Under the pieces are notes generated by a model. That model was given only the letters and a program-made list of their open reading frames with translations. It did not search any database and had not been told where the DNA came from. A stretch of DNA of 64,000 bases from Eledone cirrhosa. Taxonomy: Eukaryota. The translations under genes and the position numbers were made by a program. Positions 15,831 to 32,991 of this stretch are shown here, piece after piece (the stretch's first letter is position 1; every line of letters begins with the position of its first letter). The stretch lies in assembly GCA_964016885.1 (NCBI GenBank), contig OZ024745.1, forward strand, positions 110,670,001 through 110,734,000, written 5' to 3'.

Positions 15831-16073
15831 AATGTAGTAGGTGAGTTTTATTGTAGTACAATAAAGCAATGCAGATATCGGATAAGTAGCACTCTACGTT
15901 GATTTAAATGTTGATTTAAAACTGCACTATTCACAAGTGTTTTTTAACCTTCATATCATGTCTCCCTATTTTATCTGACGAAAACGCAAATGTCATCTCA
16001 TGATGATATTTGTTTTTGAAATGCGCATAATAAAATACAGGGAACTCTTTTAACCATCTTTTGATCTTATATT
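15831..16073 (+). mobile_element. HHR family A element (Penelope-like LTR fragment) in (TA)n
   Basis: Flanked by (TA)n; homologous to 29644-30050 and 50298-50482; contains an HHR motif. Confidence 0.75.
15963..16043 (+). ncRNA. Type I hammerhead ribozyme motif, family A
   Basis: tattttat-CTGACGA(15975)-long helix II-GAAA(16018)-tgcgca-TA-ataaaata; helix I pairs and helix III is palindromic. Confidence 0.75.
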
Positions 16074-27491: not shown

Positions 27492-28831
27492 ATTATTTCT
27501 TTGATTGAGTGAATTCCATTTAAATGGCACACTGGCAGAAGCATTAGAGCATTAGATAAAATACTATACAGTATTTGCTTTAGGGTTCTTGTGTTCTGAG
27601 TTCAAATCCTGCTGAGATCAATTTGTCATTCAACCTTCCAGTATCTATCAATAAAGTAAGAGTCTAGAATAGTCTGCTAGGCTGGTGGAATTAGTAGAGT
27701 CTCAGGTGGGATTCTTTGTGGGATTTTTTCAGAATCTTGTGTTCTGAGTTTAAATTCCACCATAGCTTACTTGGATAGTAGACTTAATATGTTATCTAGT
27801 TTACCCCAACCTTTACTGGGTCCTTGTGAGACTTTATTATTTGGGTTAAGTCTTCGATTTAAGAGTGCTTTCCTTCAACCCTCTCACTAGTTTTAGGTGC
27901 CTCAAAAATGTCTTTCCTCCTAACTAAATGATAATCATTTTTTTTATTTTTCTTCTACAGTGAATTTTCTTTACATGTATTATTTTATTAATTTTCAGGG
28001 AAGAAGTTAGTGTGTAAAAGTTATATTATCTATCAAGAGGTTTTGCAGTTGAGAGACATCATACTATTGGATAGAAAGCAAGTCTGTTTCAGGACATTTC
28101 CCTTTGTGGGAGACTTAAGCTCATTATTGTAAATTAATAAAATTCATGTACATTACACATTATGCTTCGTTTTTGAAAACTGCAAACTGTCTTTCATCAC
28201 TTTAGCTGTATATTTCTGAGTGTAGAAGAGACATCTTTTGACAGTTTAGTCAGTGAGGGGAGTGCAGGTCCGTTGCCCTCTATCAGGTCGTTTGATACTA
28301 ATGGGAGGGAGGGAGAAGGTTATCCTCTGACAGGAAATATGGTGCAAATGTTCACAATAGAGTGAACCCTGCATCAAGATCTAGGTGGTTTTATTAAATC
28401 AGGTAACAAGTTAAGCAGAGACAACAGCCAGAACATATACTGCAAGGCATCTTGTCAGATACTTAAATAATTTCACCAATTTATTGCTCTGGTCTAAAAG
28501 AAGTCTTACATCAGTTTCAAGCCTGAAGGTTCATCAGGTTGGTGCTTATCCTGGTTCACTTAGTGTGAAGCAACTGAAAATACAAGATCCCCCCCCCCCC
28601 CCCCACTCCCCGGACAGGATGCCAGTCCATCAAAGCGTTAAACCTCCAGCTGTTGCTGGTATTTATTTTCAGCTGAGAATATTGGAGCAGAATGAAATGA
28701 TGTGTTTTGCTCAAGAACACAGCACATACCCCAGTCCACGAATCAAACCCACAATATTATGATTGGAAGTTCAACATATTCACTACTAAGCCAATCGTAG
28801 ATAACTCAGAAGAAATTTTCTTGATTGAAAA

Positions 28832-28902
28832 GTTCCCTGATGAGCTGAGATTTCTCACAGTTCTCAAAAACTGTGACAACTCAGCGAAATTGCAGTTGGG
28901 AC
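28832..28902 (+). ncRNA. Type I hammerhead ribozyme motif, family D
   Basis: gttcc-CTGATGA(28837)-gctgag...ctcagc-GAAA(28886)-ttgcag-TT-gggac; perfect 6-bp helix II base with canonical G10.1-C11.1 and a second hairpin tcacagtt/aactgtga. Confidence 0.8.
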
Positions 28903-29596
28903 ATCAAAGTAAATAGGTAAACATTTATTTTCTTGTTTACTTTTCCCAAATGTAATTTTATTATGCACTGATAAATTGATTTTTATTAATTCCTTCATTG
29001 AGCAAAACTGGCATTGGTTGGACTCCATCACATGTATGTCTATACTTGTGTGTGTATATATATATCATCATCATCATCATTTCATTTTACGTCCACTTTT
29101 CCCTGCTTGCAAGGGTGGGACGGGAACTGATTCTGGCTTGATTTCTACAGCTGGATGCCCTTCCTAACACCAACCTCATTTACAGTGAGTGCTGGGTGCT
29201 TTTTTGCCATGGCACCTCCACGACCACTTTTTAGTGGAATGATATATATATATATATACAAAGGATAACAAAATATCGTTATAGGTAATCCAATTAGAAC
29301 AGTTTCCGAAGATCTAATCGTATTTAAAATTGAGTGGCACTGCTTTTAGTGTTCAGCAATTTTTAGACAACTTTATCAGTGAAACAATTATTAGACTGCA
29401 AATAAATCCCCCTTTTTTGTACTGTTGACCATGTTATTCTCCACTTTTTCAATTTATATATATATATATATATATTTCAAGACATAATTAATTGCCCATT
29501 AGGTGATGAAACATATGTTAATGCTTGGAATAAAACCCTATTATATTTCTTATCTGTGTTAATCATCCTTTTACCTGTTATATATATATCTATATC

Positions 29597-29643
<47 letters not shown>

Positions 29644-29653
<10 letters not shown>

Positions 29654-30047
29654 AGATCAAAAGATGGTTAAAGGAGTTCCATGTATTTTATTATGCGCAT
29701 TTCAAAAACAAACATCATCATGCAATAATATTTGTGTTTTCATCAGATAAAACAGGAGAACATGATATGAAGGCTAAAAAACACTTGTGGATAGTGCAGT
29801 TTTAAATCAACTACCCACAAGTGTTTTTTAGCCTTCATATCATGTTCTCCTGTTTTATCTGATGAAAACACAAATATTATTGCATGATGATGTTTGTTTT
29901 TGAAATGCGTATAATAAAATACATGGAACTCCTTTAACCATCTTTTGATCTTATATATTATGTATACTCCAGTCCTACAAACTGTAGAGTGCTTCTTATC
30001 CGATATCTGCATTGCTTTATTGTACTACAATAAAACTCACCTCCTAC

Positions 30048-30050
<3 letters not shown>
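29644..30050. mobile_element. HHR family A foldback element in (TA)n, HHR on both strands
   Basis: About 150-bp near-perfect arms 29644-29794 and 29811-29961; CTGATGA at 29859 and GAAA at 29902 on +; mirror motif at 29684-29754 on -. Confidence 0.8.
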
Positions 30051-30116
<66 letters not shown>

Positions 30117-30849
30117 CAATAAAGGGAGGAACGCAGGACTGCATACGGTTTATAATTTTTTATCCCAATAGTAAAATAAGTTGGATTACTTTGAATAAAT
30201 AATGAATGAATATTACATAATTTGTCTACTAAATTTTGTTTATTTAAAGATTCACTTCTTTAAAATTTCTGAAATGTCAACACATCCGGTGGCGATCGTT
30301 TAAATAAACATACATATATTTTTGTCACTAATTTTCTCATAATGCAGTTTATATATAATATCGTCTTTTTTTAATGTATCATGGATTACGTTACTGATTA
30401 CATAAGACAGTGTAACACAATCTTCGTACAATTTCTGTGTATATTGTCAATTACGATTTTATTTGATATATCATATCTACATGCATATATACTTGCGTAT
30501 AATATCAATATACACACTACACACGCTAGCAGAAAACCAGCCGAGGGTGGTGTTTCTGCTAGTATATATAATAAAGTACATCCACAAAAGGCACTCTATC
30601 TGTACACACATTACAGCAGCCATGACATACCTGGACTCTCCTCCACACACCAGACTACTTGCCAAACCTTCCTAGCATTGGGTTTTTTTCCCGAACTTCC
30701 TTGTTCCAATATTTTCTTCCTCTTTCTCCAAACTCTCTATTTCTTGAAGAAAGACTTATGTCCAACACGTCGAAACACTAATTTACTGCTTCCTAAGCGA
30801 GAAACTAATAAGACTTTGTGTTATTATCGCATCTGTGTTTGTTTTCTCT

Positions 30850-30990
30850 ATTCTTCTTCTTCTTCTCCAACTTATTTCTGAGAGGGTCGTGGGGGAAGAG
30901 TCCTCAAACACTTCTTCCAGTGGGTCCTGTCAGAAGCAACCATCTCCAACTGATCCGGCTGGGTCCCCAAGCAAGGCCAGCTAAGGTCAT
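30850..30990 (-). mobile_element. RTE (Rex3-like) LINE 3' tail
   Basis: Homologous to 7165-7310. Confidence 0.8.
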
Positions 30991-31365
30991 TGGCAGTACT
31001 GGTAGAGCGTCAGACACCATGCTTCGTGACATAGAGTTACGGTCTGAATTTACGTACTGAGTTCATCCTTACGGGGTCGATGTAATAAAGTACCAGTAAT
31101 GAACTAGAGTCGATTTAATCGACTTTCCCCTCCCCCAAATTACTGGCCTTGTGCCTATTACGAGGAATCATTATTATTGGCAGTATCGGTAGAGGGTCGG
31201 ACGCCATGCTTTCCAGCATAGTTACGTCCCTTTACGATCTGAGTTCAAATCCCGCCGAGGTTAACTTTGCCTTTCATCCTTACGGGGTCGATAAAATAAA
31301 GTACCAGTAATGTACTGGGTAATTGCTGGCCTTGTGCCAAATGTAGAAACAATTATTATTATTAT
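30990..31365 (+). mobile_element. Two head-to-tail SINE-A copies (30990-31177 and 31178-31365)
   Basis: Second copy begins in the (ATT)n tail of the first; CpGs retained. Confidence 0.9.
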
Positions 31366-31456
31366 AATATATATATATATAAATAAATCATCGAGAATCG
31401 GAATTTCGGCCCACGAAATAACGAAAACACAATCTTCGAAATGCGTGGCAAAGGGC

Positions 31457-31507
<51 letters not shown>

Positions 31508-31513
<6 letters not shown>

Positions 31514-31882
31514 ATTAAATAAATGGAAACTATATTTATAAAACCATATTTATTTCATTATATATATTTCGGGGATATCATATTAACAATATGCTATGCC
31601 TTCCTCAGACAAAATACAATATAAACAGTTTTATAGATAAATAGATTCGACATACCGTTATAACACCGACTTCCATTTGAAGAGGTTTAAACTGGCAGTC
31701 TTTATAGATAAATAGATTCGACATACCGTTATAACACCGACTTCCATTTGAAGAGGTTTTTACTGTTTATATTGTATTTTGTCTGAGGAAGGCATAGCAT
31801 ATTGTTAATATGATATCCCCGAAATATATATAATGAAATAAATATGGTTTTATAAATATAGTTTCCATTTATTTAATATTGT
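31508..31882. mobile_element. HHR family B foldback with an internal 58-bp direct duplication
   Basis: About 122-bp apparently perfect arms 31508-31629 and 31762-31882; duplication at 31630-31687 and 31701-31758; tattttgt-CTGAGGA(31783)...GAAA(31821)-tatata-TA-atgaaata. Confidence 0.75.
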
Positions 31883-32174
31883 AAATATACTCCAAATATT
31901 TGTCGAGTGCTTTTATATCAGTTATAAATATTTACTAGTTGTAACTCAACAATTTTAAATATAACTTTCTATATATATATATATATATATATAATGAAAT
32001 ATATAGAGAATAGAAATGGCTGTAAGTTGCTATTTAAGGTAGCTTAAAATGCAGTGGGAATACGAAAAAAGCAAGAACAGGGAGGGGGAGTTTTCCTCAT
32101 CATATAACGAAGGAAGTGTGGTAAGGAACCAGATGGACCATAACGTACAAGAGTACTTAATACTTAGGGCTATA

Positions 32175-32226
32175 GAGAGTCCAGAAATAGCCGACGAAAC
32201 GGCTTGAGCTCTGCCGTCGGGGTTAA
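32175..32226 (+). ncRNA. 5'-truncated HHR remnant, related to 4584 and 5139
   Basis: ggctat...atagcc hairpin, then GAAA-cggc-ttgagctct-gccg-TC-ggggtt; CUGANGA box absent. Confidence 0.5.
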
Positions 32227-32258
32227 ACATTTTCCTAAATATATATATATATATATAT

Positions 32259-32408
32259 AGTTTTAATATAGATGAGATTCTACAGGACTAGAACTGTTTC
32301 ATTCTTTAGAAATCATCAGGAATTCTTTAGAAATCATCAGGAGATTCCTGATGATTTCTAAAGAATGAAACAGTTCTAGTCCTGTAGAATCTCATCTATA
32401 TTAAAACT
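32259..32408. mobile_element. HHR family C foldback in (TA)n
   Basis: About 65-bp perfect arms with an internal duplication tctttagaaatcatcagga. Confidence 0.8.
32341..32393 (+). ncRNA. Type I hammerhead ribozyme motif, family C (mirror copy at 32274-32323 on -)
   Basis: gagattc-CTGATGA-tttctaaagaat-GAAA-cag-ttctagtc-ctg-TA-gaatctc; 7-bp helix I, GUA cleavage triplet. Confidence 0.8.
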
Positions 32409-32474
32409 TTTATACTCTGCAATGTATTGAGTACCTTACTTACTGTGGTTACCTCCGATTCAACCCGGAATAAC

Positions 32475-32537
<63 letters not shown>

Positions 32538-32569
32538 ATAAACGTGCTGCGGAGTTGCAAATGGGTTAC

Positions 32570-32657
32570 ATATGAATAAAGTGGTCCTTCATCAGTGATG
32601 AAATACCATCAGAAATACCGATGATGGTTGGAAGATCACTGATGAAGGACCACTTTA

Positions 32658-32664
<7 letters not shown>
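32570..32664. repeat. 30-bp perfect inverted repeat containing a CTGATGA box (truncated HHR foldback)
   Basis: atatgaataaagtggtccttcatcagtgat ... atcactgatgaaggaccactttattcatat, between (TA)n tracts. Confidence 0.7.
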
Positions 32665-32712
<48 letters not shown>

Positions 32713-32819
32713 CCCACAATAGTTGACTGAACACACGTGTGCTTTTTATCTAAAATATTTTTTTTCGTTTCTTCCTCTTCTAATTCTCCTCTATCATTCT
32801 ATTTCTTCTTTCATTCCGT

Positions 32820-32945
32820 TTTCTCTTCTGATGAAGGATTACCTTTCGAAACGTTCAGACTTTTTTCCTACTATATTAAACGCTAAAGAAATATATATCG
32901 TCATTGTACTGTATTGTTTGCTTTATTGTTTTCCGTTTTCCCTTT
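32820..32945 (+). mobile_element. Penelope-like 3' fragment with degenerate HHR; relatives at 37180-37285 and possibly 30740-30850
   Basis: CTGATGA-aggattaccttt-CGAAACGTT, then ttcctact...cattgtactgt...gtttgctt shared with 37180-37285. Confidence 0.55.
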
Positions 32946-32991
32946 CGCATATGTATGTATATACAAATACACATGTATACACACACACATT

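Follow-up and report, generated by a model that had tools for sequence, protein, structure and literature searches.

Why should some 4 kb of a cephalopod genome hold several hammerhead ribozymes (HHRs) of unrelated sequence, most of them seemingly folded back on themselves between runs of (TA)n? The region in question is positions 28800 to 32950 of a stretch of 64,000 nucleotides from Eledone cirrhosa (assembly GCA_964016885.1, contig OZ024745.1, positions 110,670,001 to 110,734,000 of the forward strand; the whole stretch is referred to below as the window), and a first-pass annotation had proposed that it is a hotspot of protein-free retroelement families akin to Penelope-like elements (PLEs). 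The answer reached here is that it is, with good confidence, a set of separate 5′-truncated PLE insertions in (TA)n. Four families, A, B, C and E, are protein-coding members of the Hydra clade; another, D, is without an open reading frame (ORF) and is likely to use Hydra enzymes; and F, also ORF-less, likely uses Naiad enzymes and has, in its full copies, a predicted permuted hammerhead. The cluster itself is ordinary, being known Hydra-clade biology in a cephalopod genome. The fold modelled for family F is a well-supported new hammerhead topology tied to Naiad, its activity being predicted only.

Are the ribozyme motifs real? The four complete type I HHRs first noticed (28837, 29859, 31783 and 32348) are. 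A three-stem descriptor applied to 28800-32950 finds five cores and none in 300 dinucleotide shuffles; three of the five are 28837, 29859 and 32348, and the other two, 29746 and 32319, are the minus-strand mirrors of 29859 and 32348 respectively. The motif at 31783 was identified by eye, from its CUGAGGA, GAAA, palindromic helix III and UA site, and misses the descriptor because its subfamily has an A10.1-C11.1 mismatch, at a position that is paired in all nine distinct family B copies that parse in a fixed register. It was also borne out that the HHRs are of the PLE type with palindromic helix III and that several unrelated families share a (TA)n target. Of the partial motifs, 32197 comprises the 3′ half of an HHR from a genuine family (E), and 32828 is a decayed member of a minimal-HHR family (G); 32639 turned out to belong to the permuted family, F, rather than being a broken ordinary HHR, and 29508 found no support, having no C3, no stems and no matches among 304 loci. 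Searching 20000-42000 with Rfam gave 121 matches at E≤5, none to hammerhead families, and in single-strand folding against shuffles the 28837 motif was the sole one to do better (z −3.3; five other stretches, z −1.1 to +0.6). The description of foldbacks in (TA)n holds for three long inverted pairs, with arms of 157 nt at 98%, 128 nt at 99% and 65 nt at 100% identity, but not for 28837, which is not a foldback here.

Are these families protein-free, mobilised in trans? Consistent with that proposal, tblastn at E≤0.01 finds no Hydra ORF in the window. Elsewhere in the 3.0-Gb genome, however, the search for autonomous partners by shared ends yielded frames with reverse transcriptase (RT) and GIY-YIG domains for A, B, C and E, and, among the loci fetched, none for F and G. 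The 40 scored copies of family A are 97-100% identical and their upstream sequence runs into a GIY-YIG-type frame; at one locus (L032:4703-7093) a 797-amino-acid frame stands directly behind the family A end repeat, with RWT, DKT, YRDD, CxCx5C, CxxC and CxH and a C-terminal endonuclease (EN), matching the motif list of the Hydra clade in section 11 of PMC8557442 (Craig et al. 2021; this source and PMC10085705, PMC4209133, PMC7229834 and bioRxiv 10.64898/2026.07.22.740005 are drawn on here for parts of their contents). Ten of 150 scored family A matches lie within open frames of 818-821 codons, and a protein search with the ORF gave two matches among 7,994 scored candidates, one of them from Argonauta hians. 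Family B tails continue into a frame 55% identical to that of A at three loci (L047, L055, L056), the family C tail continues into a homologous frame at 37-48% identity (L113), and the family E end repeat lies behind a homologous frame, the ORF being upstream (L157); overall, the frames adjoining B, C and E copies are 33-56% identical to the family A-type frame. The RW motif is RWT in A and RWR in B and C, and DKT is present in all three, the N-terminal frame part next to the E end repeat lying outside the sequence read. A CxCx5C linker, with CxxC and CxH in the EN and no CCHH, was read from the alignment for A and E, the EN domains of B and C being covered in part. The end repeats of all four families contain canonical HHRs and their target is (TA)n; the family E core has U3-A8 in four of its six distinct complete copies, as in Cercyon of Schistosoma (PMC4209133). 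As side observations, the 797-amino-acid frame is without three RT-region residues (MGS in relatives) that the B and E frames keep, open frames in other family A copies run to 820-821 versus 818 codons, and two further family A HHRs in the window, at 15975 and 50381, are solo and of older subfamilies.

By their sequence, then, A, B, C and E are classed as 5′-truncated copies of protein-coding Hydra-clade PLEs, and because the elements they derive from are autonomous they need no partner in trans. The proposal of protein-free, non-autonomous families thus does not apply to those at 29859, 31783, 32348 and 32197, whose own RT/GIY-YIG frames adjoin copies elsewhere; it fits D (28837) and F (32639) only. 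Nor is the combination undescribed in cephalopods, as had been thought possible, since Hydra-1_Obim of Octopus bimaculoides, which carries an HHR and targets (TA)n, is in print in the supplement of PMC8557442. The sequences of the HHRs here differ from that element, and there are at least four families and tens of thousands of motifs. In other respects the families are as that paper describes for the Hydra clade: the C-terminal GIY-YIG, RWx, DKT, CxCx5C, CxxC and CxH; an end repeat whose HHR is canonical but often mismatched beside the core (the U-U of family C occurs in many Hydra HHRs); the (TA)n target; and 5′ truncation with an inverted truncated copy and a tail at one end, although the tails here are ~68-95 nt as against the 30-40 nt reported for PLEs. 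In their palindromic helix III, with cleavage proposed to be as a dimer, and in opposite-strand pairs 100-700 bp apart, they resemble the minimal PLE hammerheads of Cervera and de la Pena (2014, PMC4209133), from which, as far as that comparison goes, families A-E and G show no substantial difference.

Several points weigh against the Hydra assignment. The EN part of the family A frame matches the GIY-YIG profile at E 0.0016, below the cut-off; Pfam gives no match to the whole frame, RT included; and single-sequence structure prediction of it has a pLDDT of 34.7 and is unusable (a PDB sequence search with the element ORF also returned nothing usable). The repeat-to-repeat unit of ~3.6 kb in L032 exceeds the usual <3 kb, which is itself a tendency. 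Clade membership is by motifs rather than by an RT tree, and likeness to Hydra-1_Obim is by eye. Helix covariation among genomic copies, to which the first-pass annotation had looked, is slight within the young canonical families, though it is found in the permuted fold of family F.

Family D is old, with 76-90% identity among full-length matches. Partial tandems at three loci (L067, L076, L077) have a period of 429-437 bp, and all four exact matches to the junction run through tail, 5′ part and HHR without an ORF. Given its Hydra-type tail hairpin, D is likely to be a non-autonomous dependent of Hydra enzymes. Family G has a minimal HHR and 4,212 genome matches; neither an ORF partner nor a unit was found for it, the upstream sequence shared among 30 copies extending for at least ~390 nt. 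D at 435 bp and F at 630 bp are, like animal non-LTR (long terminal repeat) retrozymes, ORF-less and in partial tandems (PMC7229834; bioRxiv 10.64898/2026.07.22.740005), with one HHR per unit as in those (PMC7229834). Unlike those retrozymes, both are mostly dispersed, truncated and tailed in the manner of PLE insertions, and the F hammerhead is not type I.

How unusual is the clustering? One descriptor was applied to 40 evenly placed 10-kb control stretches, 400 kb in all, and found 29 cores (26 elements), ~1 per 14 kb. At least three elements occur in eight of 480 overlapping 4.15-kb control windows, and the region studied reaches the same count, so that 'hotspot' is right as to density, in the top few percent of control windows, and wrong if taken to mean unique. 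Density of cores follows (TA)n: 27 were in the 25 control stretches with at least eight runs of (TA)6 or longer and two in the 15 with at most three. A single exact 27-mer of family C has 30,871 genome matches.

What, then, is family F? An exact 21-mer at 32633 has 6,102 genome matches, the unit is ~630 bp (a same-strand repeat at 616-646 bp in seven of 25 insertions), and the unit sequence listed has no RT-like frame. By eye, it fits none of type I, II or III HHR, twister, hepatitis delta virus (HDV)-like ribozyme or selenocysteine insertion sequence (SECIS). The order of its core is cleavage site, then GAAA, then CUGAUGA. In the fold modelled for it, pseudoknots would make up stem I as well as the outer portion of stem II; stem II itself would consist of a single core pair and a four-way junction that an upstream strand closes; stems I and II would be tied together by another helix; and the predicted cut would be after AUA or AUC. 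An alignment of 25 copies (three of 28 being omitted as truncated or deleted) has 94.6% of cells paired and two-sided change in eight of 34 pairs. A more diverse alignment of 40 rows was assembled from 38 of 53 pattern matches, with truncated, chance and some near-duplicate rows omitted, plus L067 and L151; its 39 distinct copies, from more subfamilies, have 92.8% of cells paired and two-sided change in 21 of the 34 pairs, a figure that none of 500 shuffles equals, slid controls being 29-48% paired and relatedness among copies remaining in these controls. Every helix has two-sided changes: stem I (88.6% paired; six of seven pairs two-sided), stem III (94.4%; two of five) and the stem I-II helix (94.4%; five of six). 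The direct stem II pair is present in 34 of the 39 copies, the remaining stem II pairs being with the upstream strand, and among the 40 rows the lone core pair is U-G in 13, A-U in 13, U-A in nine and something other in five. Outside the search pattern, the site is UA or UC in 40/40 rows, with U16.1 invariant and position 17 A in 21 and C in 19.

The spacing pattern of the permuted motif has 15,326 matches in the genome versus 13 for the reversed control. A second permuted family (L309-L337), read by eye, has a different sequence, a GUC site and the same wiring; it has 78 matches at ≤1 mismatch, and no ORF was seen beside the motif in the loci fetched. The F copy in the window has the GAAA and CUGAUGA blocks only and, to judge by its sequence, would not cleave alone. 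On the other side of the balance, 22 of 39 copies do not form the outer pair of stem I, and the structure was derived from the same sequences on which it was scored. Besides, 38 of the 40 rows come from a pattern that fixes GAAA, TGA and CTGATGA, the other two coming from a CTGATGA-containing motif, and since those letters were fixed by the search their invariance is not evidence. Between stem III and the helix that ties stems I and II lies a loop with xGA opposite xxUGAx, letters that are partly pattern-fixed; published Octopus Naiad ends have the same loop. It looks like a putative kink-turn.

Has such an arrangement been seen before? No description of a permuted hammerhead with split stem II was found in the literature searched, outside which lay subscription journals, Repbase and Dfam, and the main text of a 2026 repeat annotation of Octopus vulgaris (PMC13282606) is without mention of ribozymes or Hydra. 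Close to it in design is the type-SGC HRIMA-1 of Eckert et al. (2023, PMC10085705), with which family F shares the order of site, GAAA and CUGAnGA, a short linker between stems I and II, and a helix tying those stems. In type-SGC, unlike family F, the strand after CUGAnGA forms stem II directly, its partner being the strand before GAAA, whereas in F it would provide one pair, the rest being with the upstream strand. As F fails to have an uninterrupted block C, it is regarded as working like SGC and is not filed as SGC. The type-SGC examples in the part of that report drawn on are from metatranscriptomes, with none from the genome of a known organism apart from one type-GCS candidate; family F, in contrast, has the motif in an animal retroelement with thousands of copies.

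The tie to Naiad comes from published ends. Naiads were reported, in the sections of PMC8557442 used, as being without canonical HHRs, eight of them having an 'HHR_half_core'. Yet by eye the site, GAAA, CUGAUGA and matching stems can be made out in the ends of Naiad_Obim, Naiad_Ovul, Naiad_Aacu and Naiad_Anas, as also at three other supplement positions, a reading limited to the exact CTGATGA spelling and not a census. Clear closure of the four-way junction is seen in the Naiad_Aacu/Anas group and in two more places; the two Octopus ends do not show it clearly. Like Naiads (PMC8557442), family F has a (TA)n target, tandem and inverted insertions, and CUGAnGA with GAAA at an unusual distance; unlike the Octopus Naiads printed there, it lacks an ORF, and it departs from them in sequence and tail. 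Counting against the connection, no Naiad ORF was found beside the permuted motif in 28 stretches fetched around divergent permuted motifs, and a motif taken from the published Octopus Naiads has no matches in this genome. For these two reasons the partner of family F is inferred; F likely borrows Naiad enzymes. Taken together, we think it probable that Naiads and their protein-free dependents, F included, carry an active hammerhead of an undescribed topology, with non-circular strand order, a split stem II and a four-way junction.

How do the foldbacks arise? In every family the 3′ end lies at one of two fixed sites, giving a short end or a long, tailed one. In 72 of 77 head-to-head pairs the long end is on exactly one arm (A 18/19, B 21/21, C 7/7, E 22/24, F 4/6), the loci being the best matches to the window copy for A and B, the first in coordinate order for C and F, and all loci for E. 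The gap between arms is variable, the centre of the foldback differs from copy to copy, many copies are without any inverted arm, and truncation points vary. Arms of the same insertion differ from each other less than do arms of different insertions in B (1.2 versus 7.4 differences), E (2.1 versus 6.5) and C (4.3 versus 9.2). That the arms of family A differ at shared sites had prompted the idea of separate templates for the two arms; the unbiased families rule it out. Behind the short end, a bulged tail hairpin is found in 21/24 copies of A, 28/42 of B, 19/37 of C, 9/31 of D and 26/42 of E, and in 0/51 copies of F and 0/38 of G; it is a candidate signal for RT start sites. The hairpin has a two-sided change in D and is also seen in the published ends of Hydra-2_Amil (coral) and Hydra-2_Ajap (sea cucumber).

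The origin of PLE inverted repeats is listed as unexplained in the literature. In vitro, a PLE protein cuts and extends both strands, with starts at two internal sites (PMC11167929). In the scheme we propose, the RT-endonuclease would cut both strands of (TA)n, and each cut end would prime cDNA on RNA from a single source element, starting at either of two fixed sites that lie 40-95 nt from each other; the two cDNAs would stop early and be joined head to head, so that the resulting foldback has a tail on one arm. Since (TA)n would be kept on both flanks of an insertion, later insertions could pile up. The HHRs, with their palindromic helix III, would act as dimers and cleave the multimeric precursor RNA that source elements give rise to; within these foldbacks a long hairpin would bury them; a head-to-head foldback, having one sense and one antisense HHR, would presumably supply no dimer partner. 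Priming from both target ends at two sites is thus the origin that we infer for the foldbacks. Set against it are the two of six family F pairs that break the one-tail rule, the family A arm differences (2.5 versus 2.5, uninformative), and the inability of arm similarity to separate twin priming from snap-back or later conversion.

That last point brings up the competing accounts. If priming occurred once and the template then switched, by snap-back, to the newly made cDNA, both arms would come from the same source, as they appear to, and the short palindromes or duplications often held at the centres would fit; snap-back alone, however, leaves the halt of the second arm at a fixed family site unaccounted for, and both-strand extension with two start sites has been observed in vitro (PMC11167929), so that we consider it somewhat unlikely. 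A MITE-like (miniature inverted-repeat transposable element) DNA element moving as a palindromic unit would account for near-perfect arms of 65-157 nt in (TA)n, but hardly for copy-specific centres, for asymmetric ends in those 72 of 77 pairs, or for the many copies lacking an inverted arm, and deserves next to no credence. What of the idea nearest to that originally put forward, in which every family is retrozyme-like, protein-free and moved in trans? The lack of a Hydra ORF in the window and the ORF-less units of D and F speak for it, and animal retrozymes are described, in the part of bioRxiv 10.64898/2026.07.22.740005 consulted, as non-autonomous PLE derivatives. The end repeats of A, B, C and E nevertheless run directly into Hydra ORFs elsewhere, which refutes it for these, and truncation points differ from copy to copy; as an account of the whole set it is very improbable.

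For family F the alternative is of another kind: its fold may be a protein-binding or packaging structure of hammerhead descent that no longer cleaves. There is a single direct core pair in stem II, unpaired in five of 39 copies, and HHR cleavage is dispensable for insertion of a Poseidon element in vitro (PMC11167929). However, the three core blocks keep hammerhead geometry across subfamilies, in the second family and in distant Naiads, and position 17, which the search pattern left free, is never G in the 40 rows. We hold loss of cleavage to be unlikely, and an active permuted hammerhead to be the better reading of family F.

Features of the region, in window coordinates
Feature	Position	Strand	Remarks
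Family D unit, 5′-truncated copy	28800..29050	+	old, ORF-less, ~435 bp; type I HHR 28837-28897
Family D tail hairpin	within 28800..29050	+	Hydra-type, one base changed here
(TA)n target runs	29579..29653, 30050-30111, 31460-31509, 32479-32533, 32661-32710		
Family A inverted arm	29639..29795	-	short end; HHR core 29746-29692
Family A end repeat with tail	29810..30047	+	HHR 29859-29913; tail hairpin at 29966; autonomous Hydra-clade
Family B inverted arm	31510..31759	-	short end; 71-bp duplication at centre
Family B end repeat with tail	31760..31969	+	HHR 31783-31832, A10.1-C11.1 mismatch; tail hairpin at 31889
Family E remnant	32107..32235		inverted tail, then 3′ half of HHR (GAAA at 32196)
Family C inverted arm	32260..32343	-	short end, core 32319-32281; 21-bp duplication at centre
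Family C end repeat with tail	32344..32475	+	HHR 32348-32386, U10.1-U11.1; tail hairpin at 32414
Family F inverted arm	32534..32599	-	40-nt tail; CUGAUGA block only
Family F short arm	32612..32660	+	GAAA and CUGAUGA blocks; cleavage block and upstream strand truncated away
Family G decayed copy	32712..32948	+	69-79% identity; minimal-HHR motif at 32828

Between these features lie others of lesser standing. At 29260-29455 is a decayed copy (~75%) of another family, of which the GAAA half alone is recognisable here (29377); in better copies (L230, L189) an HHR can be read whose stem II is very long. A decayed minimal-HHR-like motif at 30744-30790 ends a pyrimidine-rich stretch and has one relative at 71% (L186). 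The end of a further repeat lies on the minus strand at 31380-31457, and one locus (L245) has two copies of it at a distance of 603 bp, suggestive of another short tandem unit.

What would follow from all this? The near-strict rule of one tailed arm is genomic support for two-site priming as the source of PLE inverted repeats. How Naiads could thrive without hammerheads has been a puzzle, to which the answer suggested by family F is that they probably have a hammerhead, one invisible to type I descriptors. If that is true, HHRs would be common to animal EN+ PLE clades. There would be a non-circularly permuted ribozyme in animal genomes, with ~15,000 copies in this one, and non-circular RNA permutations would extend from environmental RNA to animal retroelements. 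Family F would also be an exception to the rule by which CUGAnGA and stem II belong to a single block.

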